DNA of 18,456 nt from a virus, in UHGV virus genome UHGV-0102749. One strand, 5' to 3'. The translations under genes and the position numbers were made by a program. Positions 2,376-15,262 of this stretch are shown here, in pieces. The notes beneath the pieces were generated by a model. It was not told the DNA's origin, did no database searches, and was given only the letters and a program-made list of their open reading frames with translations. Every line of letters begins with the position of its first letter. Position 1 is the stretch's first letter.

Positions 2376-3176
2376 TTAACCGCGCTTTGCCTTCTGCGTC
2401 GCGGTGGTTTTTCGTGTTGCAGGCTTCTGCGTTGTCTTTTTACTTTTGCTGCTTTCGTCCTGCGTCTGCTGTGCGCTGGCGTCTTCTGGTGCGGCTGCGG
2501 AATCGGCTTTTTTCAGGGCGCGGGAAAGGGTTGCAATCTCGCGTTTCACACCTGCGTTCGGGTTCAGGTGCATCGCTTCGCGCAGCAGCTTCAGTGATGA
2601 GGCCATGTTGTCTGCATCGGTCAGGCCACGACGGGCAAAGGCACACGCCTTGCATAATTTGGCGCGCACTTCGTCCGGCATGTCCTGGTTGGCGACAATT
2701 TCCCAAAGTGTGTCCAGTGGTTCGATAAAGGCGGATAAATCCGCGTCGGCATCCGTCCCGGCCTGCGTCAGTACCGGGTTGCAGATTTCTTCGGTCAGTA
2801 CCGTGGCAGCAGTACGGCCAAAGTTATCCGGCATGATGAGGTTGTGACGGACCACATATGCACCAATACGCAGCGCCAGCGGAAGATCGCCGCAGTCAAT
2901 CGCCCACACCATCAGCGTGGCAATTACTTCGTCCTGTTGCCCGCCGTCAGTCTCCAGCGTTCCCTCAATCCAGCCGGAAAAGTCCGGCAACAACTCTTTT
3001 TTGATGGCGGCTTTCGCGCTTCTGGCCTGTACGCCCTTTAGCCTGGCCTGTGCCAGACGCAGACGATACAGCACCTCTTCATGCGCGGTACGCGCGGCGT
3101 GGTCCACACCTTCATTCGCCCGGCCTGCGCGCTGTGCCATCACGTTCTGCCAGTGTTGTTGTGCAGGAGTAATCAT
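2376..3176 (-). CDS. M: Terminase small (endonuclease) subunit, P2 gpM position
   Basis: 266 aa ORF between gpN and gpL; SD GGAGAG; basic Lys/Thr-rich C-terminal tail. Called from synteny and size. Confidence 0.65.
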   Translation of the reverse strand: MITPAQQHWQNVMAQRAGRANEGVDHAARTAHEEVLYRLRLAQARLKGVQARSAKAAIKKELLPDFSGWIEGTLETDGGQQDEVIATLMVWAIDCGDLPLALRIGAYVVRHNLIMPDNFGRTAATVLTEEICNPVLTQAGTDADADLSAFIEPLDTLWEIVANQDMPDEVRAKLCKACAFARRGLTDADNMASSLKLLREAMHLNPNAGVKREIATLSRALKKADSAAAPEDASAQQTQDESSKSKKTTQKPATRKTTATQKAKRG

Positions 3177-3221: not shown

Positions 3222-4274
3222 TTAGCTGTCGGCGAACTTCAGGCCAGTGATCATCGCGCACTTGCCATAGTCTTCAACGACATAAGCGTCATTGATGGAC
3301 TGGTAGGTGGCGATGCGGTTGTATTCCGGCTCGTCTTTCATCAGGCGACGCATTGAACCTTTCTGCCAGTAAATCGACAGGTTGTTGAACGAGGTGATAA
3401 GCATCGTTGCATCCGGGAAGAACGGCGCAAGGAACACGCCCAGCCCGCCAATGGTGCGCGATGACAGGATGAGCTGCCCGGCAAGTAATTCCGCATTGGG
3501 ATTCTGGCCGCTGATGCTGTTCAGCACGGGCAGACGCAGCGAGTTAAACAGGTTGCGCCCCATAATCACCGCGAGGTCGTCAGCTTCCTTGTGCCATTCA
3601 TCCAGCAGGGATGAGCGCGCATCCTGTACCAGAGCATCGGCATTCGCATACTTACCCACGTGCGCCACAGTGTTGTCCATGTTGCGGGAGGTCAGCGTCA
3701 CGTCATTCATTACGCGCTCGCTGGCATCGGTTCTGATGTGCTCCAGCCAGCCCACGTTAACGTCCTGAAGCAGCTTGTTGGTGTGAAAATCAGACTCGTA
3801 GGCGTGGGATGTGCCGTTAAAGCCAATCATGATGCGATCAAGCGCTACCTGCCGGGCGATCTGTGTACTGATACGGGACTGAAAATCGCTGTGGGCCGCC
3901 CAGGTATCAAGCTGTGGGTACGAAATAAAGGTATCGTAGTTCACCTGTTCGCACTGGTACTGACGAGACTTCATATCGATCACGTTATTCGGGTTACGGC
4001 GTTTGATGCCGTCATAACTGCTATTCGTGCGCGCAATTGGCCCGGTGGTGTCCAGGAGGATTTTTTCGCCTTTCTGGTCGGTCACGCCGATCACGTTAAT
4101 TCTTTTCGTAAATTCGGTACTTTCCTTTGAGGCGTTTTCAAAACGCTGCTGCACCGCGGGTTCCACGGTAAATCGCGATACCAGTGCAGATACCGGGATA
4201 TTGTTAAGCGACGCCTGCTGCGCCATATAGCAACCCAGCTTGTTGCGGGTAATATCTGACATCACCAGATTCAT
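3222..4274 (-). CDS. N: Major capsid protein, P2 gpN homologue
   Basis: 350 aa; blocks FTVEP, IMIGFNGT, VGWL, YVVEDY and LITSFNNLSIYW match P2 gpN; SD AAGGAG before ATG 4274. Confidence 0.9.
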   Translation of the reverse strand: MNLVMSDITRNKLGCYMAQQASLNNIPVSALVSRFTVEPAVQQRFENASKESTEFTKRINVIGVTDQKGEKILLDTTGPIARTNSSYDGIKRRNPNNVIDMKSRQYQCEQVNYDTFISYPQLDTWAAHSDFQSRISTQIARQVALDRIMIGFNGTSHAYESDFHTNKLLQDVNVGWLEHIRTDASERVMNDVTLTSRNMDNTVAHVGKYANADALVQDARSSLLDEWHKEADDLAVIMGRNLFNSLRLPVLNSISGQNPNAELLAGQLILSSRTIGGLGVFLAPFFPDATMLITSFNNLSIYWQKGSMRRLMKDEPEYNRIATYQSINDAYVVEDYGKCAMITGLKFADS

Positions 4275-4297: not shown

Positions 4298-5134
4298 TCA
4301 GAAGTCAGCCAGCTGGTCGGAGGCTGCGCCCGTTGCGGTGAAGCGGTTCTGCGGATCGCCGTCCTGCGTGCGCAGTTTTTCCTTCAATGCTGTCAGCTCT
4401 GTGGTCAGTGACGTGATTTTCTGGCGGTCCTGCTGATGGCGGGTTTCCAGCACATTAAAACGGTCGATAATGTCGGCCTGTGACGTTGCAACGCCTTCCA
4501 CCGCTTCCTGAATTCGGGAGAAACTGGCGTCATCCGCTTTGCGGCCACGACCAATAATCCCCATTACGCGGTTAAACCACTGGGTGCCTTCTTCCTGGCG
4601 TTGTTCTGCCATTTCGATGATTTCAGACTCGATGGCTTCGGAGATAAGCGGTGCTTCACCCTGGATACTGTTGAACGTCATCACCGCCTGACGTTGCTGT
4701 GCCGTGAATTTCAGGCGCTCAGTGCCCAGGCTTGCCGGGGTGTCGGTCATCGCCAGCCCGACCAGATAGGCGCGCCCGTTAACGGAGAACTGCGGGTGCA
4801 GTTCGATACTGGAATAGATTTTCTTGCCGTCCGCGACAAGCTGCTTCATGCGTTCGGTAGGTTCGATTTCTGCATACAGCGCAGTACGTCCGGCCAGCGG
4901 ACCTTCCGTAATGTCTTCCGTACTCAGTGCGGTGACATCGCCCATTGCGGAAAATTCGCTTGACGGGCATGGCGAGAGATAGTGCTCAACGTTCACACGG
5001 GCAGCGTAAACATCCGGGTTGAAGTTCTCGGCGGCTTCACGCAGATGCACCGGGCTGATTTCGCGGCCATCAACAGTTGATCCGGAGACAGCCACGCGAA
5101 ACTTTTTGCGGGATGTCTTTTTTTCATTAGCCAT
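4298..5134 (-). CDS. O: Capsid scaffolding protein, P2 gpO homologue
   Basis: FRVAVSGSTVDGREISPVHL and YLVGLAMTDTPASLGTE match P2 gpO (FRIGVEGDTCDGRVIS…, YLVGLAVTDDPASLGTE). Start taken at ATG 5134 (SD GAGGGG); the ORF track extends to 5167. Confidence 0.85.
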   Translation of the reverse strand: MANEKKTSRKKFRVAVSGSTVDGREISPVHLREAAENFNPDVYAARVNVEHYLSPCPSSEFSAMGDVTALSTEDITEGPLAGRTALYAEIEPTERMKQLVADGKKIYSSIELHPQFSVNGRAYLVGLAMTDTPASLGTERLKFTAQQRQAVMTFNSIQGEAPLISEAIESEIIEMAEQRQEEGTQWFNRVMGIIGRGRKADDASFSRIQEAVEGVATSQADIIDRFNVLETRHQQDRQKITSLTTELTALKEKLRTQDGDPQNRFTATGAASDQLADF

Positions 5135-5288
5135 AGTTTTTGCCCCTCTGACTGGTTCTTCAGTCATGATGGCAAAGCGTAACAGGCTGATACAAAGGGC
5201 TTTTGTTGTAAGAAAACGGCCAGAACAGGGGGTTAAGGAGAACGGTTTCGCGCGCGGGTAATCTTCCTGTAATTACTCAGGGGGAGCA
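5135..5288. promoter_or_regulatory. Divergent late-promoter region between O and P operons; contains dyad ACAAA-N5-TTTGT near 5192..5206
   Basis: Intergenic region between divergent gene starts. P2 late promoters here are Ogr-dependent and carry a dyad element; an imperfect dyad is visible, but no exact promoter was mapped. Confidence 0.35.
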
Positions 5289-7040
5289 ATGATTCAGGAC
5301 GCTTTTGTGCGCCAGCGTGCGCGGCAACTTTACTGGCAGGGTTATCCGCCCGCAGAAATATCACGTCTGATGGGAATAAACCCGAACACGATTTATGCGT
5401 GGAAAAAACGCGACCAGTGGGATGAAACGCCACCCGTGCAGCGTGTCACGCAATCCATCGATGCGCGCCTCATCCAGCTTACTGAAAAACAGAATAAAAC
5501 AGGCGGTGACTTTAAGGAAATAGACCTGCTGACCCGGCAGCTTAAAAAGCTGCATGATGGCCAGCCGGATGTGATGGCCGCAGGAAAGAAAGGCCGGGCG
5601 AAAAAACTCAAAAATCATTTCACGCCGGAACAGATTGCCGCACTGCGGGAAAAAATCATCAGCAGGCTGGAGTGGCATCAGCGAGGCTGGTTTGACTCCC
5701 TGACCCTTTGCAGGGAAGCCGGGATACGTAACAGGATGATCCTGAAATCCCGACAGATTGGGGCGACCTGGTATTTTGCGCAGGAAGCGCTGCTGATGGC
5801 GCTGCGTGACGATGTGGCGCAACCTTACCAGCGTAACCAGATTTTTTTGTCTGCGTCGCGTCGTCAGGCGTTCCAGTTTAAAAGCATTATTCAGAAGGCC
5901 GCGGCTGAAGTTGATGTGGAGCTGAAAGGGGGCGATAAAATCATCCTCTCCAACGGCGCAGAGCTGCATTTTCTCGGCACTTCTGCTGCGTCGGCACAGT
6001 CCTATACGGGCAATTTTTATTTTGATGAATTTTTCTGGGTCAGTCGCTTTGCTGAACTGCGCAAGGTGGCTGGCGCGATGGCAACCCTCAGCGGACTGCG
6101 GCGCACCTACTTCTCCACGCCATCCACCGAAACGCACGAGGCATACGCCTACTGGAACGGCGACCGCTGGAATGAGAAAAAGGCCACGCATAAACGCCAG
6201 CGTTTTTCTGTGGACTGGAAAACGCTGCATAACGGGCTTATCTGTCCTGACCGGACGTGGCGGCAAATTGTCACGCTGGAAGATGTGGTTAATCACGGCT
6301 GGAAACACACCGATATCGACGAAATTCGTGATGAAAACACCGAAGACGAGTTCCGCAATCTCTATATGTGTGAGTTTGTCCGCGAAGGGGAATCGGCATT
6401 TAACCTGAATATCCTGATTGGCTGCGGCGTTGACGGGTACGACGACTGGAAAGACTGGAAACCTTTTGCTCCCCGCCCGATGGGGAATCGTCCGGTATGG
6501 ATTGGGTATGACGCAAACGGCAGCAGCGGCAACGGCGACAGCGGCGCTGTGTCCGTGGTGGTTCCTCCGGCTGTGCCTGGTGGCCGTTTTCGAACGGTGG
6601 AGACGCGACGCGTTCAGGGGCTGGAGTTTGAAGAACAGGCCAGAGTCATTGAAGAGTTCACGTATCGCTACAACGTGGAACACATCGGCATTGATGTGAC
6701 GGGCGGGAACGGGGAGGCTGTTTATCAGATAGTGAAACGGTTTTTCCCTGCTGCTATTCCGTACACCTTCACGCTGTCATCAAAACGGTCGCTGGTACTG
6801 AAAATGCTGCAAATAATGCGTGCCGGGCGGTGGGAATACGATCGCGCCGAACGCGAGCTGGTCGCGGCCTTTAACGCCGTGCGTAAGGTGAAAACACCGG
6901 GCGGCTTTATCACTTACGAAACGGACCGTGCGAGGGGGATCAGCCACGGCGACCTTGCGTGGGCAACCATGCTTGCTGTCATTAACGAACCGATTGGCGG
7001 CGAAGGAGAAAACGAGCGTTTCACGGTTATGGAGTTCTGA
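5289..7040 (+). CDS. P: Terminase large (ATPase) subunit, P2 gpP position
   Basis: 583 aa (P2 gpP is ~590 aa as I recall); SD GGGGAG; divergent from the capsid operon and one-base-coupled to the portal gene (TGATG). Confidence 0.85.
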   Translation: MIQDAFVRQRARQLYWQGYPPAEISRLMGINPNTIYAWKKRDQWDETPPVQRVTQSIDARLIQLTEKQNKTGGDFKEIDLLTRQLKKLHDGQPDVMAAGKKGRAKKLKNHFTPEQIAALREKIISRLEWHQRGWFDSLTLCREAGIRNRMILKSRQIGATWYFAQEALLMALRDDVAQPYQRNQIFLSASRRQAFQFKSIIQKAAAEVDVELKGGDKIILSNGAELHFLGTSAASAQSYTGNFYFDEFFWVSRFAELRKVAGAMATLSGLRRTYFSTPSTETHEAYAYWNGDRWNEKKATHKRQRFSVDWKTLHNGLICPDRTWRQIVTLEDVVNHGWKHTDIDEIRDENTEDEFRNLYMCEFVREGESAFNLNILIGCGVDGYDDWKDWKPFAPRPMGNRPVWIGYDANGSSGNGDSGAVSVVVPPAVPGGRFRTVETRRVQGLEFEEQARVIEEFTYRYNVEHIGIDVTGGNGEAVYQIVKRFFPAAIPYTFTLSSKRSLVLKMLQIMRAGRWEYDRAERELVAAFNAVRKVKTPGGFITYETDRARGISHGDLAWATMLAVINEPIGGEGENERFTVMEF

Positions 7041-8086
7041 TGAGCAGAAAAAATAAAAAAGTGCGCATGAGTTCACGCATTGATCTCGCTGATGCGCTCA
7101 GGAAAGAATCATCGCTCAGTGCATTCACATTTGATGGTCCTTATCGCCTGACCGGGCATGACCTGCTGGACAATATGTACTGTGCTGATAACGGGCGGTG
7201 GTATGAAACCCCGGTAGACTGGTACGGTCTGGCAAGAGCTGCCCGGCAAACGTCCTGGCATCAGTCTGCGCTTTACTTTAAGCGCAATGTATTACTCGGT
7301 TGCTACATCCCGCACCCGCTGCTTTCCCGGCAGGATTTCTCGGCGCTGGCGCTGGACTGGTTTGTGTTCGGTAATGCATTCCTTGAGCTTCGAAGCAATA
7401 TGCTCGGCGAACCGCTTAAATTACGGCACGCCCTGGCGAAATACATGCGACGCGGAAGCGATCTTGAATCATGGTGGTATGTGCAGGATGGTAAGGACGC
7501 GTTTCAGTTTCGCCCTGGCAAAGTGTGCCACCTGATGAATCCGGATATTAACCAGGAAATCTACGGCATGCCGGAATATCTCGGCGCATTACTCTCGGCC
7601 AGCCTGTCTCATTCGGCGGACATGTTCAGAAAACTGTACTACGACAACGGATCCCACGCCGGGTGCATCATCTACATCGGTGCAGCGCAGGTAAACCGCG
7701 AAAGCATGGACTCCCTGAAAGAAACGCTACAGGGGGCACGTGGTGGTGGTGCGTTTAAAAACGTGCTCATTCATGCGCCCAACGGGGGCAAAGAGGGGGT
7801 GCAAATTTTGCCGTTCCAGCAGATCACCGCAAAAGATGAATTCATGAATGTTAAGGCGGCATCCCGTGATGATGTGCTGGCTGCGCACCGCGTTCCGCCG
7901 CAACTGATGGGGGCGATGCCGGGCGAAAAAAGTGCGTTTGGCGATGTGGAGAAGGCAGCGCGGGTTTACGCAATTAACGAGCTGATGCCCGTCATGGAGG
8001 CTATGAAGCACATCAATGGCTGGCTTGGCGAAGAGGTGATCCGTTTTAACTCTTATGCTCTTCTTGATGAAAAAACAGCCCCGTGA
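7040..8086 (+). CDS. Q: Portal protein, P2 gpQ position
   Basis: 348 aa (P2 gpQ ~344 aa); directly follows the terminase ATPase gene as in P2. Confidence 0.8.
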   Translation: MSRKNKKVRMSSRIDLADALRKESSLSAFTFDGPYRLTGHDLLDNMYCADNGRWYETPVDWYGLARAARQTSWHQSALYFKRNVLLGCYIPHPLLSRQDFSALALDWFVFGNAFLELRSNMLGEPLKLRHALAKYMRRGSDLESWWYVQDGKDAFQFRPGKVCHLMNPDINQEIYGMPEYLGALLSASLSHSADMFRKLYYDNGSHAGCIIYIGAAQVNRESMDSLKETLQGARGGGAFKNVLIHAPNGGKEGVQILPFQQITAKDEFMNVKAASRDDVLAAHRVPPQLMGAMPGEKSAFGDVEKAARVYAINELMPVMEAMKHINGWLGEEVIRFNSYALLDEKTAP

Positions 8087-8102
8087 TGGGGCTGTCCTTT
8101 TT
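8075..8102. terminator. Bidirectional intrinsic terminator shared by convergent genes Q and 8101..8625
   Basis: Stem ACAGCCCC (8075..8082) / GGGGCTGT (8088..8095), 5-nt loop, then CCTTTTT on the plus strand and an A-run (T-run on minus) on the other side. The Q stop codon lies in the loop. Confidence 0.6.
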
Positions 8103-8625
8103 ACCAGAGTTGAACCATTTTCTGGGTGCCGTCAGGCTTGAGATTATCAATTTCAGAGAGAACGTAATATTGAATGGCTTCACAAACGGTGGTGTAGGGT
8201 GAATTACCTTCTTTAAGTGGCACGATATTATTATTAACGCGAACCTGTATTTCATCGTTATACATTGCGATCGAAACAGGAGTGTGCACGAACGCGACTT
8301 CGCCAGGTGTGTCGTCAACCACCGTTTCAATACTAAAAGTCAGTTTTCGCTCATCATTGCTGCCCCGTGCTTTGGGGGTAGCGGCAGGGATCTGGGATAA
8401 AGGCATTCTGCGAAATCCTTCGGCTGCTTCCAGTCCGCATGAAACGTAATGCTGGCGATTACCGTCGCTATCTGTCCAGGTCTGTGATGGCAGCTCCAGC
8501 GAGATTTCATAAGCATCAACAATGCCCTGGGCAAGGCGCACAAGCGGGGTCAGATCTTCATTGCGGCGAAAGCTCTCCTTTACCTGCTCCCGTTTTTCTC
8601 TTAACTGCTTGTAATTAATGACCAT
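8101..8625 (-). CDS. Hypothetical protein (orphan cargo gene, convergent on portal gene)
   Basis: 174 aa from ATG 8625 with SD GGAGG 7 nt upstream (MVINYKQLREKREQ…). I see no recognisable motif. GC content looks lower than the structural genes. Confidence 0.6.
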   Translation of the reverse strand: MVINYKQLREKREQVKESFRRNEDLTPLVRLAQGIVDAYEISLELPSQTWTDSDGNRQHYVSCGLEAAEGFRRMPLSQIPAATPKARGSNDERKLTFSIETVVDDTPGEVAFVHTPVSIAMYNDEIQVRVNNNIVPLKEGNSPYTTVCEAIQYYVLSEIDNLKPDGTQKMVQLW

Positions 8626-8724
8626 AAGACAGCCTCCATTGATTTCTTTGCTCGTATTTTGCACTTATGAAGTATGGTCGGCAAGGTGCCGTATCGCTGA
8701 CGCGCTTCGCTTGTCTGCTGCTTC

Positions 8725-8753
8725 GCCGGGGCATAAAAAATTTATGCCCCGGC
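8725..8753. repeat. Perfect 13-bp-stem inverted repeat GCCGGGGCATAAA-AAA-TTTATGCCCCGGC
   Basis: Read directly from the sequence; no U-tract on either side, so it is not a canonical terminator. Confidence 0.7.
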
Positions 8754-9030
8754 TCTCCAGCTCCTGTATCAATCAGATAATTTCACGACGCCTTCCAGTT
8801 TATCGCCACCATCGACGGTCAGACTCTTACGCAATTCCACCGCGTTGACTGTATGTTCTCGCTGCCTCAGTGCGATTTTGACGGCCTTACCTTTCACCCC
8901 ATCAAATCAAAAGCCCTCACGCCTTTTTCATGCTCAGCGTGAGAAATATGGCCATTCTGTTGTGTCTCTGCGACATCGTTCAGGGAATGCTATTTACCCC
9001 CTGAAACGCGGGCTGTTCCCCCGTCACCTG

Positions 9031-9054
9031 CGCGCAGAAAAAGCGCGTTTTTTT
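9031..9054 (+). terminator. Terminator-like hairpin CGCGC-AGAAAAA-GCGCG followed by T7
   Basis: GC stem plus TTTTTTT run on the plus strand, with no annotated upstream plus-strand gene; it may end a small transcript or insulate the cos region. Confidence 0.35.
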
Positions 9055-9124
9055 GTGCACGCACGGATCCCTGACGGATCCAGCCGCCACGCGGGCCAGA
9101 AGGGCAAAAATTCGTTCAAAAAAA

Positions 9125-9150
9125 TTGTGCAAATTTGTGCACTATTGTGC
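9125..9150. promoter_or_regulatory. Three direct TTGTGC repeats at exact 10-bp spacing upstream of the ATPase operon
   Basis: ATTGTGCAAATTTGTGCACTATTGTGCGC; hexamers at 9125, 9135 and 9145, about 90 bp upstream of ATG 9237. Confidence 0.4.
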
Positions 9151-9236
9151 GCTAAATCGAATCCCTGTATTGCTTACCAGCTCATTACATGTAAACTCAA
9201 CAGGTAGCAATATTTACTTCCAAAAGGTGGAACAAA

Positions 9237-10436
9237 ATGGCTTTTACAAAAATCAGAATCGATAATCTGTTTTGCTTTGAAAATAGCATCCTTGACTTAA
9301 GCTTCTCCAGACCCCCGATCAACAGCTCACTGGAAGGTGAGTACATTGATGGATTTGAAAAGTTCTACTTCAAAAAGGTTTGCATCGTTTCTGGTGCTAA
9401 TGCATCTGGTAAAACATCTCTTGGTCGCGTGATGCTTTCTGTGTTGCGTTTTCTCAGTAGTGGTGTTTTCAATCCAGAACCGTTAAAAATTACTGACAAA
9501 AGAAAACCTGCATATATAGAGGTTGACTTTTTCCAGAGTCATTTAAAATGTTTGTTTAGGGCAGGTGTCTGGCTTAGGGCTATGGATGAGTCTGTTGTTG
9601 TAGAAAAAATTGCAATGGCATCTGTTGATTTAAGAAGCTCGGAATCATGCGCAAAGACGACCAAAAGACTGGATGCTGTGTGGGATGCGCAAAAGTTTGA
9701 ATTAAATGGTCAAAATAGATTTTTTTCAACCGAAAACGCTAACTCAAAAGAATTTTCCCAATATTTAGAGGATTTGGACTTTGTTCTTGGTTGGCATTTC
9801 ATTCTATCTGAAAACCAAGAGAACACGGATAAAATATCACGAATTAAGAAGAATGTGCTTAATAGCATATTAAAAACCTTTGACAATACTGTTAAATCTG
9901 TCTCAGGACTCACTCTTAAAGATGATGAGGGAAAGGAGGATTTGCAGGGTTATTCAGTAGTCTTCAATAATGGAGATAGAGTTATTATTGATATGGAAGG
10001 TGATATAACAAATAAAGATAGACTGTCTCGTGGTACTTATGAGGCAGTAAAAATATCCCATCTCCTGTCAGGAGTGCTTGAAGATAAAATAGAAGAGCGA
10101 GAGTTCAATTTCCCTTGCAGTGGGGTATACTTTTTGGATGAGAAAATGGCCTTCACTCATACTGAATTAGAAAAAATGATGGTCACGCTGATTATATCTA
10201 AGCTTTGCAGATATGGTCAATTTATATACACCACACATAATTATGATATCTTGAGCTTAGATCTGCCTACGCATTCATATACTTTTACTAAAAAAGTAGA
10301 TGGTGTAACCACTTTTGTTGAAGCTACCACACATCATAAAAAGAATGATCGCAATCTTTTAAATAAAGTAAAAAATGACTGTTTTGCAACAATACCTGAC
10401 GTTTCATTAATCGAAGAGATGCTATTTGAGGATTGA
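9237..10436 (+). CDS. ABC/AAA_21-type ATPase (OLD/AbiL/PARIS-like ATPase component)
   Basis: 399 aa; SD AAAGGTGG. Walker A GANASGKTS, Walker B-like VYFLDE, H-loop-like TTHN near the C-terminus. Strongly AT-rich relative to the flanking phage genes. Confidence 0.8.
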   Translation: MAFTKIRIDNLFCFENSILDLSFSRPPINSSLEGEYIDGFEKFYFKKVCIVSGANASGKTSLGRVMLSVLRFLSSGVFNPEPLKITDKRKPAYIEVDFFQSHLKCLFRAGVWLRAMDESVVVEKIAMASVDLRSSESCAKTTKRLDAVWDAQKFELNGQNRFFSTENANSKEFSQYLEDLDFVLGWHFILSENQENTDKISRIKKNVLNSILKTFDNTVKSVSGLTLKDDEGKEDLQGYSVVFNNGDRVIIDMEGDITNKDRLSRGTYEAVKISHLLSGVLEDKIEEREFNFPCSGVYFLDEKMAFTHTELEKMMVTLIISKLCRYGQFIYTTHNYDILSLDLPTHSYTFTKKVDGVTTFVEATTHHKKNDRNLLNKVKNDCFATIPDVSLIEEMLFED

Positions 10437-10438
10437 TT

Positions 10439-10957
10439 ATGGCAGTTAAGAAATTTGCTATTATTCTTGTTGAGGGAGATACGGAAAAAGCATTGTTTCA
10501 GGATTTCAAAACATTGCTAGGCTATCCTATTAAGAAAATAGTAATTGCTAATTTATGGAATGTTAATATAAATAAATACATGCCAGCATTAACCGAAAAT
10601 AGCGAAATCATAGTGGTTTTTGATACGGATAGGATTGAGAATCTTGATAGATTTAAGAATAATCTCAATCTATTAAAGGCGAAAAAACACACAATCCACC
10701 TATTTCAACAAACAAGCAATTTTGAGGATGAGCTTGCCAATGCTTGTGGTGTAAGTAATAGAAAGTTGTATTCTTGTTTTTGCCCAAAGATCATCTCTGC
10801 AGATAACTTCAAGAATGAATTCATTGCGCTGCGCAACAGGATGATGAAATTAGATGGACTTGGACTAAATAAAACGTTGCTTTGGAGTAGAGGGATTATC
10901 CCCCAATTGAGAGATTATAATTTTCATGTTTCCTCTCATGATGATTATTTTTTATAA
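10439..10957 (+). CDS. Small RloB/DUF4435-like (Toprim-like) protein, partner of the ATPase
   Basis: ATG at 10439, 2 nt after the ATPase stop (the ORF-track start at 10433 is TTG); SD GAGGA. N-terminal AIILVEGDTEKALF resembles the conserved EGxxE block of RloB/OLD-type Toprim-like proteins, followed by an acidic VVFDTDR motif. AT-rich. Confidence 0.65.
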   Translation: MAVKKFAIILVEGDTEKALFQDFKTLLGYPIKKIVIANLWNVNINKYMPALTENSEIIVVFDTDRIENLDRFKNNLNLLKAKKHTIHLFQQTSNFEDELANACGVSNRKLYSCFCPKIISADNFKNEFIALRNRMMKLDGLGLNKTLLWSRGIIPQLRDYNFHVSSHDDYFL

Positions 10958-11403: not shown

Positions 11404-12363
11404 TTACTCCTTGTCCATTGCGTACAGCCCATTAACCAGAGCAAACTGTGGCACCCCGTCCGCGATGAAAGTCGCATTAACTCCGCAGGCTTCGCGGATA
11501 GCGGGTGCCACAATCTCCGCCCCTCCACCGACAACCATCACCCGCCCGTAACCCGAAAAACCCGCCAGCGCGCGGATCACGCGTTGTTTCAGTGTTTCTT
11601 CCTTTTCACGAATAACCGCCATCAGGCTGGCGTAATGCGCGTCATTGTGGATGTGCTGGCGCAGCCAGGCTTCATCATGGCGATGTTCGATAATGGTATT
11701 GGCGATGTGGTGACTGGTGCGCATACCGTTAGTGGCCATCACCGACAGTACGGCATCGGCCATCAGAGAAACGCCTACGTGTGGATCGCAAAACACCTGG
11801 CTGATACCTGCCAGTTGCCCCTGAACCTTTGCCACATCCAGCGTGGTTCCGCCCAAATCCACAATCAGCAGGGATTCAAACGGACTCATGTCAGCCAGTG
11901 CCTTAAAGCCTGCCGGAATGGATTCAGGCATAACCCGCACGTTACGGATAGTGAATGCCTCACCGTTCTGGTACTCCACCGGGCGCATGACGTTCGCTTT
12001 TTTGCGGTTGATGTTGGTCATATCCGGCTGTGCGTTTGTGTCGAAATACTCGCTCAGTGGCAGGGTGACAACCACATCCACCTCCTGTGGCGTGATGCCT
12101 GATTTGAGCAGCGCGTGATGAATGGCAATGACATTCACATCGCTGTACTGGTATTGCGTGTCGGTCGTCTGGACAAAGCGATCGCTGACCGGATCAAAAC
12201 CATAGCGCACGCCATCAAGCATGTAGTTCGCGGGCTGCGTGCCACCGAACGGCGCAGACCATTCCGACTTGAAGCTGTTCGGGCTGATGGCGTTGCGGCG
12301 TTCGCCGTTCTCAGTCCATGCCAGCTTGATGTTGGTGGAGCCGTCGTCGATACAAATTTTCAT
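11404..12363 (-). CDS. parM: ParM/StbA-family actin-like segregation ATPase
   Basis: 319 aa. MKICIDDGSTNIKLAW…SPNSFK…YQYSDVNVIAIHHALL…VMPESIPAG…LIVDLGGTTLD…VMVVGGGAE tracks R1 ParM block by block (phosphate-1 DDGSTN, connect/phosphate-2 DLGGTT, adenosine GGGAE); SD AAGGAA. Confidence 0.85.
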   Translation of the reverse strand: MKICIDDGSTNIKLAWTENGERRNAISPNSFKSEWSAPFGGTQPANYMLDGVRYGFDPVSDRFVQTTDTQYQYSDVNVIAIHHALLKSGITPQEVDVVVTLPLSEYFDTNAQPDMTNINRKKANVMRPVEYQNGEAFTIRNVRVMPESIPAGFKALADMSPFESLLIVDLGGTTLDVAKVQGQLAGISQVFCDPHVGVSLMADAVLSVMATNGMRTSHHIANTIIEHRHDEAWLRQHIHNDAHYASLMAVIREKEETLKQRVIRALAGFSGYGRVMVVGGGAEIVAPAIREACGVNATFIADGVPQFALVNGLYAMDKE

Positions 12364-12394: not shown

Positions 12395-12503
12395 TTTACG
12401 GGATTCTGAAATCCCGTTTTTGCCTGTTTTGTGCGCGCTTCATATATCGCTGCGCGTTTTTTGCTCATTTACGGGATTCGTGAGTCCCGTTTCTGTCTGT
12501 TTT
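12395..12503. repeat. Two ~36-bp direct repeats, each with an internal dyad (ACGGGATT…AATCCCGT) and a T-run, straddling the A stop codon upstream of parM
   Basis: Copy 1 (12395..12430) TTTACGGGATTCTGAAATCCCGTTTTTGCCTGTTTT; copy 2 (12468..12503) TTTACGGGATTCGTGAGTCCCGTTTCTGTCTGTTTT. Candidate parC-like centromere/operator or tandem terminator-like hairpins. Confidence 0.5.
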
Positions 12504-15262
12504 TTGTTTCCACTGGTCAGGCCACCCCGCAGCAGGTCTGCTTTGCGGCGGGCGCGTTCAGTGGTTTCACTGATTCTCTGTGCGTGCTCTGCGTCGCGGA
12601 TGGCGCGCAGCATGTCAGAAAGCACGGTAACGGGTGTTTTCATGGTGTTCTGGTCCTGCTGAAGTGTGGATGCCAGGCGTGCGGCGGCTTCAGGGTCTGA
12701 TGCCCCCAGCTGTGCCAGATAGCTGGCGACCGGGTTATGGCGGATCTCCGTGCTGCTTACGCCGTGATTACGGCTCAGGCGCTGCCAGAGCTGCGTGATT
12801 CGGCTGTCCGGGCGGGTATCCGGTTTGCGTACAATTTCAAATCCCTGCGGTGAAATGATGCTGCCGTCAACGTACAGACTGCCGCCCCGTAACAGGTGCT
12901 GCATCTGCTGTTCACCAATATGCAGGCCGAGAGATTCAGCAGACTCCCGCCATTCTTTAGCGAGTAATTCGTGGTTATCAGGCAAAGGCCGCTGCTGTTT
13001 GCGGCTCTGTGTCCAGCTCTGCATTTCATCACTGCTGTTTTTTGCCTGTTTGTCACGCAGCGAACGCATCAGCGCCCGGCGTTCGTGCCGTTTCAGTGAG
13101 CGCATCCATTCATCCACATCAACGCCGTCAGGAAGCTGCGGCCACGGTGCTGGCCGTTCTTCCGGCTGTTCTGTCCCGTTGTTGTCCGTTTCCTGTACAC
13201 GGGGACAGTTATTGCCACGAGTCCAAGGGGCGGCAGGGCCGCCCTGAAGGTCAAAACCATTTTCGCGGGCGCTGTCTTCCGCTTCCGGTTTACGTCTTAT
13301 CAGCTTCCAGTTATCCGGATGTGTGCACACACGGGAAGACTCCCCGATGAGTGGTGACCAGATCCCGTAAATCTGTACGCTCTGTTCGCCGTAATCGTTC
13401 GGCTCATCTGCGAGGTCGTAGGCGGTGCGAATCAGGTAGTCTTTGCGTGGAACAAGTACGCCGCCCTGTTTTTCAATGTAGGAGGCAAAACACCCGGCAT
13501 CAGCGGCAGCGAGCACTGCATCCATTGCGTCATCCTTCAGCCGTTGCGGGCCTTCCGGGTTGCGTGCCATCTGGTTGGCAAGGCGGCGCAGTTCACGCCA
13601 CACCTGACGGGAGGGGATGCCAAAGAACTGGAACTGGCGGACCCGGTGAAGGCGCGCCCAGCCGATGGCGCGCTCCACGCTCTCGGCCATTGATTTTCCG
13701 GTTTCGTGGTCAACGCGTGGCTTGCCCGTTTTCGGGTCGATACCATCCACGGCGCGGCTGTCCAGGTTCTTTCCGATGTAGGTGGCGATGTAGCTGGTTG
13801 GCGTGCCTTTTGAGCCGTCGACATACTCCACCTTAAAGCGCGGAGTAATATCATTGCCCAGCTCGTGGCGGTCTTCCTGAATGGCAATATCGCGGGTATG
13901 GGACACAATGGTGTCGATTTCTTCCGGATGTGCAAAGACCATCATATGCCAGTGCACGGTGCCGTCATGATGAGGCTCCACCGTGCGGATGCCATACCAG
14001 CGCAGGCCGTCGCGGTTCAGTTTTTTGCGGACCGCCGCAAAAAACGTGTTAACCAGGTAATCGCTGGAGTCGCGCATTGTGGCCCCGTTCCATTTGGGAT
14101 TTGGATGACCGTTCTCCGTTGTGGCGTGGTATTTTGACGGGCAGGTGACAGTCAGAAACACCGCTTTGTCGCCACGGGCTTCGGCCAGAAGTTCCAGCCC
14201 CTTCATGGTGGCCATCATTTCTGCCTTACGGTGAACCGGGTTACTTACTCCCGCGTAATACACCGTCTCGAGATCAATCGTGAACCCGTCTTCATTTTCC
14301 AGCATGAAACTTTTCAGGAAATCGCGTGTTTTCTCGCGCTGTGCGCGAAACTCGCTTAACGCGTCCTGGCTCAGATAGGGTGATGTTTTTCTGGAAACCA
14401 GACAGGCGGCGCGGAGTTGTTCTTCCCGCCACTCGCAACGTAACAGCCACAGTTTGCGTTTCCACCATTCCGCACAGGTCAGGCGAAGGATTGCGCCCGG
14501 CAGCAGCTCCGTGTCCGGTTCGTTCCTCCGGTCTTTGTCTGTTGTCAGAGCGTCATAATGTGGAGGCATGGCGTGCAGGTGTAACGCCATGCGGGCCAGC
14601 ATCTGATACGCCTTCAGCGTTACATCCATGGTCAGCTCGCCATCGGTCGCGCCAAAGCCATCGCAGAGTTTTTCAAAAGTGCCACTGAACATCGCCGCCG
14701 TCATGGTGGCCAGCGTCTGTATCTGGTGTTTGTTGAGCTGCGGCAGGTAAAGCAAATCGTCCAGGCGTTCGCGTCCGGCAAGGGAGCGATAACCCGGTGT
14801 CAGCCAGCGGTGATCGGTGCGCTCCAGACGTTCGAATATTTTGCGCAGGGTCCCACGCGCATAGCGTTCTGCCTGCCTGGCGTTTTTTCCTTTCTGACGA
14901 TCGGCTTCCTGTTTTTTGCGCAGGAAGGAGAGGTGGCGAATAAGCGGATCGCGCAGATAGGACGGCAGCAGGCGCAGCGAGGCCATGGCTTCATCCACCG
15001 CGCCGCGTGCCTGTTTTCTGGCGTCTCCTGCCAGTGTGATGGTTTTGTCCTGTTTTTCCTGTGCGTCCAGGCTTTTATTAATCAGGTTGCCCAGCGGCGT
15101 GGCGGAGAACGCCGCATCAGCCATTTCCTGGCGGCGCTCGTTCTCTGCCCGGTAGGCATCCAGCCAGGAGGAAAGCGCGGATTCAGGAGCGGGGATCCCC
15201 GTTCCTTCACGCCCCACTGCGTGGCGCGGTTGTTGCCAGTCCCTGATGTACTCTGCCGTCAT
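12440..15262 (-). CDS. A: Rolling-circle replication initiator, P2 gpA-like (HUH endonuclease)
   Basis: 940 aa. HUH motif VHWHMMVF and paired catalytic tyrosines in SYIATYIGKNLD (YxxxY), as in P2 A. Last gene of the leftward early operon. Confidence 0.8.
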   Translation of the reverse strand: MTAEYIRDWQQPRHAVGREGTGIPAPESALSSWLDAYRAENERRQEMADAAFSATPLGNLINKSLDAQEKQDKTITLAGDARKQARGAVDEAMASLRLLPSYLRDPLIRHLSFLRKKQEADRQKGKNARQAERYARGTLRKIFERLERTDHRWLTPGYRSLAGRERLDDLLYLPQLNKHQIQTLATMTAAMFSGTFEKLCDGFGATDGELTMDVTLKAYQMLARMALHLHAMPPHYDALTTDKDRRNEPDTELLPGAILRLTCAEWWKRKLWLLRCEWREEQLRAACLVSRKTSPYLSQDALSEFRAQREKTRDFLKSFMLENEDGFTIDLETVYYAGVSNPVHRKAEMMATMKGLELLAEARGDKAVFLTVTCPSKYHATTENGHPNPKWNGATMRDSSDYLVNTFFAAVRKKLNRDGLRWYGIRTVEPHHDGTVHWHMMVFAHPEEIDTIVSHTRDIAIQEDRHELGNDITPRFKVEYVDGSKGTPTSYIATYIGKNLDSRAVDGIDPKTGKPRVDHETGKSMAESVERAIGWARLHRVRQFQFFGIPSRQVWRELRRLANQMARNPEGPQRLKDDAMDAVLAAADAGCFASYIEKQGGVLVPRKDYLIRTAYDLADEPNDYGEQSVQIYGIWSPLIGESSRVCTHPDNWKLIRRKPEAEDSARENGFDLQGGPAAPWTRGNNCPRVQETDNNGTEQPEERPAPWPQLPDGVDVDEWMRSLKRHERRALMRSLRDKQAKNSSDEMQSWTQSRKQQRPLPDNHELLAKEWRESAESLGLHIGEQQMQHLLRGGSLYVDGSIISPQGFEIVRKPDTRPDSRITQLWQRLSRNHGVSSTEIRHNPVASYLAQLGASDPEAAARLASTLQQDQNTMKTPVTVLSDMLRAIRDAEHAQRISETTERARRKADLLRGGLTSGNKKQTETGLTNPVNEQKTRSDI

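Follow-up and report, generated by a model that had tools for sequence, protein, structure and literature searches.

The cos sites of P2, 186, PSP3 and P4 (NC_001895, NC_001317, NC_005340 and NC_001609) lie just past the portal gene, 168–177 nt beyond its stop codon in P2 and 186, and adjoin an accessory hotspot. Each has a G/C-rich core of ~19 nt, the G-rich strand of which is antisense to Q. Directly next to it are a 19-nt hairpin, a T-run and a TGCA box, and three more TGCA boxes lie ~100–120 nt off. Ziermann and Calendar reportedly described, in 1990, a conserved '55-bp core' around cos in this family (cited in PMC3931495 and PMC5694545). A comparable plan is known from lambda (cosQ-cosN-cosB, with its R sites), where a nicking site has short repeats on one side that are presumed to be read by the small terminase subunit. 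The lambda cos differs in its 12-nt overhang, its unrelated sequences and its unrelated small subunit, and is cited here as an analogy, not as a member of the same group. In the P2 family, an accessory-gene hotspot between gpA and gpQ adjoins cos, and P2 and its satellite P4 share the core cos signal (PMC9122126). The interval between cos and Q is an insertion hotspot as well, occupied by retrons Ec67 and Ec86 in 186-like prophages and by ORF1-4 in phiRSY1 (PMC5694545).

The window, by which we mean the whole 18,456-nt stretch of DNA analysed, is a P88-like (Xuanwuvirus) prophage of the P2 family. Its genes are arranged N, O (minus strand), P, Q, the gene-free region at 8626–9236, cargo, ParM and gpA, which is the P2-type prophage order. 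We estimate a probability of about 85% that the gene-free stretch is the cos packaging region of this P88-type, P2-like prophage together with two neighbours that do not belong to cos. A cos region at this place is an ordinary, expected feature and not a new kind of element. The predicted site lies between the portal gene Q and the accessory region preceding gpA, as on the P2 and 186 maps, and Pfam matches and identity to the P2 proteins identify a cognate gpM/gpP-type terminase on the same element (Table 1). The gpM homologue is presumed to be the trans-acting reader of the cos boxes, and the gpP homologue the nuclease that cuts cos. Of 5426 complete E. coli genomes, 1149 carry this type of prophage. 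All four features listed in the sequence-only reading are present at the positions given there, to within 1 nt. That reading had suggested a cos site in this region, a location that is supported by conservation, box geometry, boundaries and sharing with a satellite-like element, as described below.

Table 1. Features of the window in and around the predicted cos region (positions in the window; '.', no strand assigned).
Feature	Position	Strand	Basis or remark
Small terminase subunit gene, gpM homologue	2376..3176	-	Pfam Phage_term_smal, E 1.4e-36; 36% identity to P2 gpM
Large terminase subunit gene, gpP homologue	5289..7040	+	Pfam Terminase_6N/6C, Terminase_5; 44% identity to P2 gpP
Portal gene, gpQ homologue	7040..8086	+	Pfam Phage_portal; portal annotation in matching phage records
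Inserted moron-like module relative to P88, ~630 bp, borders approximate	8067..8696		P88 match resumes at 8693-8697, at the P88 portal stop codon
Bidirectional intrinsic terminator common to portal gene and convergent orphan gene, overlapping portal stop codon	8075..8095	both	Terminator scan; fold z -4.7 (+), -5.9 (-); T-runs on both strands
Orphan gene, 174 aa	8101..8625	-	phrog_5091 (family of unknown function)
GC-rich palindrome hairpin without U-tract	8725..8753	.	Conserved; z -8.0 (+), -6.5 (-)
Non-coding spacer, portal-side hairpin to cos	8754..8985	.	6-10% divergence and indels among P88-like sequences
Predicted cos module (packaging signal), ~166 bp	8986..9151	.	Shared with satellite-like element L134; colinear with P2, P4 and 186 cos
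Predicted cos core and ~19-nt 5' cohesive end	9010..9030	-	Minus strand of 9010-9028 is GGTGACGGGGGAACAGCCC; predicted cut sites, +/- 2 nt
Cos-adjacent hairpin (GCGCGC / GCGCGT), then T7	9030..9054	+	Terminator scan (listed as 9030-9048); resembles an intrinsic terminator for transcription coming from the portal gene
Proximal TTGTGCA box, TGCA at +28 from core	9053..9059	+	T-run plus (G/A)TGC in all true relatives
Direct repeat ACGGATCC x2, one GATC per copy	9063..9081	+	Lineage-specific part of inter-box spacer
Three TTGTGCR boxes, 10 bp apart (+100, +110, +120)	9125..9151	+	Last conserved element before variable cargo
Leader of downstream defence operon, cargo-specific, outside cos	9152..9236	+	Similarity of all relatives ends at 9150-9151; each differs beyond
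Hotspot cargo, AbiL-like pair (ATPase and OLD-type TOPRIM genes)	9237..10957	+	PADLOC AbiLi E 1.1e-27, AbiLii 6.2e-5; Pfam AAA_15, OLD-like_TOPRIM
ParM	11404-12363		Encoded in the window

The predicted cos module and its core

The predicted module presents, in order, the G/C-rich core, the 19-nt hairpin, the T-run and a TGCA box, and ~70 nt later the three TTGTGCR boxes. The segment 8693–9150, which starts at what is the portal stop codon in P88, was conserved at 92–99% in all P88-like phages, and 9007–9150 was common to the window and Novemvirus phiT5282H. In 82 unique viral-contig sequences, as in 1139 E. coli records, similarity ended at 9150; it stops exactly behind the third box, where the hotspot cargo begins. 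Among 41 P88-like sequences, the least variable 30-nt block was 9009–9038 (mean difference 0.007). In P88_4B11 the core has lost 5 nt at its portal-side edge.

A motif near ~9011 had been likened to the reverse complement of the P2-type cohesive end. The motif itself, GCTGTTCCCCCGTCACCTGCGCGCAG, is present at 9012–9037, but taken alone its 13/19 likeness to the P2 cohesive end is no better than chance: eight sites in the window match the P2 19-mer GGCGAGGCGGGGAAAGCAC at 13/19 or better, compared with a mean of 4.5 in random sequences of matched composition. Relatives with the same flanks matched at 14/19 (the satellite-like element) and 15/19 (L012), the 13/19 of the window being its best register, which is ambiguous by 2 nt against P2. 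The G-rich strand of the core is antisense to Q, as in P2, so the orientation proposed for the motif was correct. The TGCGCGC next to it had been taken for a P2-type flank, a reading that was not supported; with respect to Q it lies on the far side of the core, in contrast to P2, where it is on the Q side, and forms the 5' arm of the cos-adjacent hairpin. We regard the motif as real, together with the T7 hairpin and the direct repeat discussed below, because of conservation and context and not because of chance statistics alone.

Similarity to known P2-family cos sites came out in layout more than in letters. Alignment with P2, P4 and 186 was colinear and almost gap-free, but identity was 39–49% over 164 columns, which is below BLAST detection; the terminase proteins likewise are only 36–44% identical to those of P2. 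In the colinear alignment, TCAGACCGCGCCG in the spacer was common to P4 and three relatives. When a family profile was run with nhmmer on the P2, 186 and P4 junctions, it gave a weak match to P4 (E 0.33) and a non-significant one to 186 (E 30), both colinear with cos, and did not detect the P2 junction. Since the profile hits were only marginal, homology with the P2-type cos rests on architecture and not on sequence statistics. A BLAST search of 50,697 phage records with two cos variants gave no mapped ends for a P88-type cos, the matches being prophage-numbered or arbitrarily opened; a full-text literature search for the core sequence returned nothing relevant, and the P88 and Citrobacter phiSM papers are silent on cos. 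The cut sites given for the window are thus predicted ones, in contrast to the mapped cos ends of P2-type phages.

We considered whether a cos at this locus might be cut elsewhere, either near 9106 or at a 186-like GCGTGGCGG on the minus strand at ~9084–9092. The linear P88_4B11 record (LR595891/NC_049391) does open at window position 9106 and not at the predicted nick; however, its ends abut without terminal overlap, as they would for an arbitrarily opened circle. The minus strand of 9081–9098 holds GCGTGGCGG, a 9-mer of the 186 cohesive end, but 9069–9098 is among the most variable blocks (0.104) and is unconserved in the other lineages and in the satellite-like element. A cut at these places would, moreover, break the box geometry common to five phages with mapped cos. 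We consider a displaced cut very unlikely and retain the core at 9010–9030 as the predicted nicking site.

Geometry of the TGCA boxes

The positions of the boxes relative to the core were compared with those in P2, P4, 186, PSP3 and phiCTX, the records of which start or end at cos, with cos annotated in those of P2, 186 and phiCTX. The window and 12 divergent relatives have their boxes at +28, +100, +110 and +120. The corresponding positions are +26/+98/+108/+120 in P2, +26/+98/+108/+121 in P4, +26/+98/+108/+117 in 186 and PSP3 and +25/+96/+106/+117 in phiCTX, so that the boxes of the window fall within about 3 nt of those in all five. The box consensus differs, being TTGTGCA in the window and (A/G)TGCA(T/A/C) in the P2-type cos. 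The Pseudomonas phage phiCTX (NC_003278) is akin to the window in having a T-run plus TGCA at the proximal position and TGC boxes at the three distal ones, and its G-rich end AGGCGTGGCGGGGGGACGACT resembles GGTGACGGGGGAACAGCCC of the window. It differs in having a 21-nt cohesive end against the presumed 19-nt overhang, and similarity was undetectable outside the motifs. The phiCTX GenBank record annotates repeats R3–R6 and an IHF site around cos. A candidate IHF site in the window, in TCAAAAAAATTG before the distal boxes, was rejected, as its spacing is 1 nt off the consensus.

The geometry used here (hairpin, T-run, TGCA at ~+26 and three TGCA at ~+98/+108/+118–121) is a criterion of our own, derived from the mapped-cos records and not a published one. 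The sole anchors with the P2 box geometry in the 18.4-kb window were at 9028–9030. A match to the geometry alone was found somewhere in 33% of random windows, and its weight therefore comes only from its coincidence with the core, with conservation and with the position adjoining Q.

The three distal boxes are presumed to be a binding array for the small terminase subunit. They could instead act, with their surroundings, mainly as a promoter or operator of the adjacent defence cargo: the mapped old-tin transcript starts of P2 (33424 and 33426) are just past its TGCA boxes, the -35 element of the P2 old promoter lies over the third box by our own reading of the sequence, and in the window, too, the boxes directly precede the cargo. 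However, the boxes are invariant while cargo and leader differ wholly between phages, their spacing is the same in P4 and in the satellite-like element despite different neighbour genes and orientation, and no sigma-70-like site was found on them. A role mainly in cargo expression is therefore very improbable, although the boxes may serve as both packaging signal and cargo promoter/operator.

Arrays of short phased repeats also make up centromeres, and the 10-bp phasing of the boxes could be read as a parC-type centromere of a phage ParM/ParR system, all the more as ParM is encoded in the window and P88 annotates a partition protein beside its own ParM. Against this, the repeats are ~2 kb from parM with variable cargo between, and they are found at the same spacing in P2, P4, 186, PSP3, phiCTX and the satellite-like element, the whole annotated gene set of which includes no partition gene. 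We regard a centromere as extremely unlikely, and the terminase-binding array as the preferred reading of the boxes.

Between the proximal and distal boxes, the direct repeat ACGGATCC reported earlier was confirmed, with copies at 9063–9070 and 9074–9081. By itself it is marginal (chance would give an estimated ~0.2 8-mer pairs of this kind over 611 nt), and it was conserved in P88-like sequences only; the other lineages have a single GATCC or none.

Hairpins, spacer and inserted module on the portal side

The element abutting the core has the form of an intrinsic terminator, with a 6-bp stem, a 7-nt loop and T7 at 9030–9054. The sequence-only reading had recognised it as an orphan terminator; its parts are as described (CGCGC at 9031–9035, AGAAAAA at 9036–9042, GCGCG at 9043–9047 and T7 at 9048–9054), but it is no orphan, as P2, P4 and 186 have a cos-adjacent equivalent, a 19-nt hairpin with T-run at the same place (-13.6, -13.6 and -8.3 kcal/mol, respectively). 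The hairpin is unexceptional alone (energy z -0.8), and the scan gave four terminator-like sites where 2.0 ± 1.5 were expected. Of 82 unique relatives, 46 have a stem of -5.4 kcal/mol or better at 9030–9048; a single compensatory change, from C-G to U-A, was seen, and in 17 sequences the top pair is a C.A mismatch. In the Klebsiella and Enterobacter lineages and in the satellite-like element the stem is weak or missing, and it therefore cannot be essential for packaging.

It had also been suggested that this terminator ends a small RNA. The fit of 9030–9054 to the plus-strand intrinsic-terminator pattern agrees with a small regulatory RNA from the non-coding region, as does the lack of a plus-strand gene directly upstream, Q having its own terminator at 8075–8095. 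However, no Rfam match at E ≤ 1 and no plus-strand promoter-like site were found in 7900–9500, and 8754–9056 folded no better than shuffled sequences (z -0.56). The upstream spacer is the most variable part of the region, with indels; several lineages retain the T-run plus TGCA but have lost the stem; and the same hairpin and T-run adjoin cos in P2, P4 and 186. The suggestion was thus not upheld, and we consider such an RNA very improbable and the hairpin a companion of cos.

The spacer at 8754–8985 was not shared with Novemvirus or with the satellite-like element. Substitutions in the mechanical ORFs of 8626–9236 showed no codon periodicity in 41 related sequences (chi-square p 0.59–0.99). 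The small CDSs annotated in P88, mapped to the window by a fixed coordinate offset, showed none either, and their frames are broken in the window. As substitutions in both spacer and cos are without codon periodicity, we conclude that the region is non-coding.

The second hairpin, at 8725–8753, is far beyond chance on both strands (Table 1). It is a perfect 13-bp stem as first read, GCCGGGGCATAAA (8725–8737) and TTTATGCCCCGGC (8741–8753) around AAA, and a repeat search agreed. Forty of 41 P88-like sequences keep it, with stems of 10–17 bp, and none of the 40 variants has a U-tract after it. In P88 and P884B11 the same hairpin is 17–45 nt past the portal stop codon, the post-portal position at which tQ of P2 and tW of 186 are annotated. 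In P2, 186 and P88 the portal stop is thus followed, at a distance of no more than a few tens of nt, by a GC-rich hairpin, the P88-like one differing in its lack of a U-tract. In the window, ~640 nt separate it from the portal gene because of the inserted orphan module. The hairpin is an ancestral element just 3' of the portal gene that was displaced by this insertion.

The inserted module comprises a new portal 3' end, a terminator, the orphan gene and the region upstream of that gene, and 8087–8692 was found in 397 of 5426 complete E. coli genomes. An orphan gene had been noted between Q and cos, and its position was confirmed. Its supposed rarity was not, given these 397 genomes and an interval known as an insertion hotspot (PMC5694545). 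The protein had no match in Pfam, PADLOC or NCBIfam, and its homologues are restricted to Enterobacteriaceae; a fold search with its AlphaFold2 model (pLDDT 78) gave no convincing match. As in the known cos-gpQ insertions, a foreign gene has come with its own signals, leaving portal gene and cos both undisturbed; unlike the retrons and the phiRSY1 genes, the cargo here is a single 174-aa phrog_5091 protein.

A shared, predicted packaging signal and its meaning

A satellite-like element (L134, from E. coli DLI.6n) shares only 8986–9150 with the window, at 79.8% identity over 168 nt. It encodes a capsid homologue, Ogr/Delta, an integrase and a Toprim primase but lacks genes for terminase, portal and tail; this gene content suggests a working satellite. 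Sharing of cos alone between element and phage mirrors the sharing of cos between P2 and P4. Terminase-less elements of ~12 kb with a P2-family capsid homologue and Ogr/Delta, which have only this cos in common with P88-like phages, their presumed helpers, were present in about 56 complete E. coli genomes. Tentatively, the 166-bp module might represent a second packaging-specificity class among the P2-like phages of E. coli, with core and boxes unlike those of P2, 186 and P4 and with dedicated satellites, although we think this rather doubtful.

The following course of packaging is proposed. After induction, the terminase, composed of the gpM and gpP homologues, would assemble on the ~166-bp module at 8986–9151. 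Four TGCA-type boxes, all on the far side of the core from the portal gene, would presumably be recognised by the small subunit. One comes after the T-run, ~28 nt from the core; the other three, at +100, +110 and +120, are one helical turn apart. The large subunit would presumably make staggered nicks in the G/C-rich core at ~9010–9030, leaving a ~19-nt 5' overhang, GGTGACGGGGGAACAGCCC, on the minus strand, with nick positions predicted to ± 2 nt. The hairpin and T7 at 9030–9054, which would abut this core as in P2, P4 and 186, probably also keep, in this lineage, plus-strand transcription of the late P-Q operon from running on into the defence cargo. The palindrome at 8725–8753 would be the conserved post-portal hairpin, cut off by the ~630-bp moron-like insertion.

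For a prophage type that is very common in E. coli, these results locate the predicted packaging signal to within about 20 nt and give exact boundaries for the two accessory-gene slots flanking cos, which helps in annotating prophages, setting genome termini and delimiting defence hotspots. If a second specificity class does exist, divergence of cos would set which satellite parasitises which helper, and the hairpin and T-run embedded in cos would have a second function, insulating the defence cargo from late transcription. The geometry of the cos boxes is kept from Pseudomonas phiCTX to the P88-like phages of E. coli even where sequence similarity is gone, and it offers a practical way to locate cos in unmapped P2-like phages and their satellites.

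Gene order and the insertion beside the portal gene

The order of genes, read from ORFs and Pfam matches (table), indicates that the window is the interior of a P2-type prophage. The packaging and head proteins were 36% (gpM), 44% (gpP) and 41% (gpN) identical to those of P2, and the nearest phage records were P88-like Peduoviridae of the genus Xuanwuvirus. Also present in the prophage, with a small ORF next to it, is a ParM-type gene for actin-like segregation; a partition protein is annotated beside its counterpart in P88. Such a gene is unusual in an integrating P2-like phage.

Features of the window and the related E. coli island
Feature	Position	Strand	Basis or remark
Small terminase gpM	2376-3176	-	ORF list + Pfam
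Capsid N	3222-4274	-	ORF list + Pfam
Scaffold O	4298-5167	-	ORF list + Pfam
Large terminase P	5289-7040	+	ORF list + Pfam
Portal Q	7040-8086	+	ORF list + Pfam; region under study comes next
Bidirectional terminator of inserted module	8075-8095	both	z -4.7 and -5.9
Perfect 13-bp palindrome	8725-8737 / 8741-8753		
Cos-like motif	9012-9037		read from sequence
CGCGC-AGAAAAA-GCGCG-T7 element	9031-9054	+	
Direct repeat ACGGATCC x2	9063-9070 and 9074-9081		
Two-gene cargo	9237-10957	+	ORF list + Pfam
ParM	11404-12363	-	ORF list + Pfam
Replication protein gpA	12440-15262	-	ORF list + Pfam
Island L134 of strain DLI.6n	L134 668-12560; NZ_CP103974.1 ~4031167-4043059		cos at L134 3504-3668

The match of the window to P88 started at the P88 portal stop codon (window 8693); compared with P88, window ~8067-8696 has therefore been inserted. 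This module replaces about five last codons of Q and supplies a bidirectional terminator, a gene for a 174-aa protein (8101-8625, minus strand) and the leader of that gene. Of 5426 complete E. coli genomes, 1149 have this cos type and 397 have the module, with the orphan gene at the same position in all 397; four phage records also have it. A gene between Q and cos had been called unusual for P2, a view that gains no support from this frequency or from the description of the cos-gpQ interval as an insertion hotspot of P2-like phages (PMC5694545). The orphan protein belongs to phrog_5091, with homologues in Enterobacteriaceae only; its structural model (pLDDT 78; two helices, a beta-sheet and a C-terminal helix) had no convincing fold match among structural neighbours. 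On the other side of cos, in the slot that belongs to old and tin in P2, the cargo comprises two AbiL-like genes, one for an ATPase (399 aa; PADLOC AbiLi, E 1.1e-27) and one for an OLD-type TOPRIM protein (174 aa; AbiLii 6.2e-5; Pfam OLD-like_TOPRIM). The gpA-gpQ interval beside cos is a defence-gene hotspot (Rousset et al., PMC9122126).

Evidence for cos and its register

The four features listed in the sequence-only reading (a cos-like motif, a palindrome, an orphan terminator and a direct repeat) were all recovered by inspection and repeat search, at most one base off. Codon periodicity of substitutions was absent from every part of the stretch among 41 distinct P88-like sequences (p = 0.59-0.99), indels were present in the spacer in the same set, and the small CDSs annotated in P88, placed on the window by a fixed coordinate offset, were interrupted by stop codons. 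By these measures the stretch is non-coding. Folding of the palindrome was far beyond chance (z = -8.0 and -6.5); the terminator-like element had an ordinary folding energy (z = -0.8), and the motif's 13/19 identity with the P2 cohesive end was at chance level (eight window sites of at least 13/19 vs a mean of 4.5 in random sequence).

Comparison with relatives identifies the stretch as the predicted cos region of this P88-like prophage, divergent within a known kind; next to it are a portal-side hairpin, now displaced, and a moron insertion that is common. In viral contigs, CCCCGTCACCTGCGC gave many chance matches and ~90 true relatives, which belong to several lineages of enterobacteria. These relatives all have the same order of elements: first a core, GGGCT..CCCCCGTCACCTGCGC, then 13 variable nt, TTTT(T/C)GTGCA, a spacer of ~60 nt that is conserved in part, and AAAAAAATTGTGCAAATTTGTGCACTATTGTGCA. 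Counted from the end of the 19-mer distal to the portal gene, TGC(A/G) boxes lay at +28, +100, +110 and +120 in the window and 12 divergent relatives, at +26, +98 and +108 in P2, P4, 186 and PSP3 with a fourth at +120, +121, +117/121 and +117, respectively, and at +25, +96, +106 and +117 in phiCTX. The records of these five phages have the cohesive end at the record start or end; cos is annotated in those of P2, 186 and phiCTX, the last also with repeats and an IHF site around it. The 19 nt adjoining the core fold as a hairpin in P2 and P4 (-13.6 kcal/mol each), 186 (-8.3) and the window (-9.6), and in all four a T-run and then the first TGCA box lie beyond it. Boxes placed as in P2, to within 2 nt, were found somewhere in one third of random windows; across this window the geometry occurred at 9028-9030 only, and it carries weight because it coincides with the conserved core beside Q. 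When the family was aligned with P2, P4 and 186 (L-INS-i), the result was colinear and almost free of gaps, at 39-49% identity, and TCAGACCGCGCCG was found at the same spacer position in P4 (right arm) and three relatives. Intermediate cores occur among the relatives; that of one divergent relative (L012), GGTGACGGGGGGAAAGCCC, matched P2 at 15/19. The mapped end of phiRSA1 starts GGTGAGGCGGGG (PMC5694545).

The cos-like motif is upheld as the cos core, with its G-rich strand antisense to Q as in P2. The TGCGCGC taken for its P2-type flank is not such a flank: P2 has this sequence on the Q side, but in the window it stands on the opposite side of the core and forms the 5' arm of the cos-adjacent hairpin. 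By analogy, we infer that the small terminase subunit binds the boxes.

Phage records and the literature apparently contain no mapped ends for a phage with this cos type. Two registers relative to P2, 2 nt apart, are possible: the 19-mer ends at 9028 by the best core match, but box geometry and global alignment favour 9030. The linear record of P88_4B11 (NC_049391, Xuanwuvirus) opens at window 9106 and its ends simply abut, and we therefore read it as a circle opened arbitrarily. In the record of this phage, GCGGG is missing from the edge of the core nearer the portal gene (GAAAC-CTGTCCCCCCGTCACC; its locus L003, ~2810-2825), a deletion found in 0 of 41 other P88-like sequences. If the deletion is real and P88_4B11 viable, the left nick cannot depend on GCGGG.

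Hairpins and the inter-box spacer

P88-like phages have the palindrome as a conserved hairpin downstream of the portal gene. In P88 and P884B11 it is found 17-45 nt past the portal stop codon, at the place of P2 tQ and 186 tW as annotated, and was present in 40 of 41 P88-like sequences (stems of 10 to 17 bp), none of which had a U-tract after it. By our own reading, the corresponding place in two more distant lineages has another GC hairpin, then TCTCC. TCTCC stands in place of a T-run after the post-portal hairpin in three divergent lineages (window 8754-8760 and the relatives' loci L008 ~2284-2292 and L012 ~5845-5853), which suggests a shared non-canonical 3'-end element of the late P-Q transcript.

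The supposed orphan terminator is instead a cos-adjacent hairpin plus T-run, and Rfam, promoter-like sites and folding gave no support for the small RNA that it might have marked. The T-run and TGCA box are present throughout the family. The stem, with one compensatory C-G to U-A change, is strong in P88-like phages and two other lineages only; it is lost in the lineages of Klebsiella and Enterobacter and in a satellite-like element (below), and is therefore not essential for packaging. In the window's lineage, hairpin and T-run plausibly stop plus-strand transcription from the P-Q operon. The direct repeat is real as a P88-lineage trait of the inter-box spacer, other lineages having a single GATCC or none at its position. 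A further spacer block, GACCGCGCC...GGGCGGAAAGGG.A.AAA (window 9083-9110 and relatives), is conserved in part and is often a short inverted repeat.

Limits of the module and a satellite-like element

Every P88-like phage record was 92-99% identical to the window over 8693-9150, within which 9009-9038 was the least variable 30-nt block of the P88-like set (mean difference 0.007) and spacer 8769-8978 diverged by 6-10%. Similarity stopped at 9150 in 1139 E. coli records and 82 distinct viral-contig sequences, and past this point the cargo was different in each phage. Less is shared by more distant relatives: Enterobacter phage phiT5282H (Novemvirus) has only 9007-9150 in common with the window.

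The weakest full-length match in E. coli genomes lay in a ~12-kb island of strain DLI.6n, between mazEF/hpt and gcd. Its products include a 423-aa homologue of P2-family major capsid proteins, a zinc finger of the Ogr/Delta type, two integrases, an Icd-like protein and a Toprim primase; no terminase, portal or tail genes were found in it. Of the 18.4-kb window, the island shares at the DNA level only 8986-9150 (79.8% identity), and its capsid and integrase are just ~35% identical as proteins; the functional cos module is therefore placed at ~8986-9151, and roughly 24 nt beyond the core toward the portal gene would be required. The same cos flank occurs in ~56 complete E. coli genomes. P2 and P4 are reported to have a core cos signal in common (PMC9122126). 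The island fits this pattern and may be a satellite of the P4 type that encodes a capsid and has P88-type helpers. This capsid-carrying, terminase-less element sharing cos is one of the two by-products of most interest; the other is the conserved box geometry, a usable means of locating cos.
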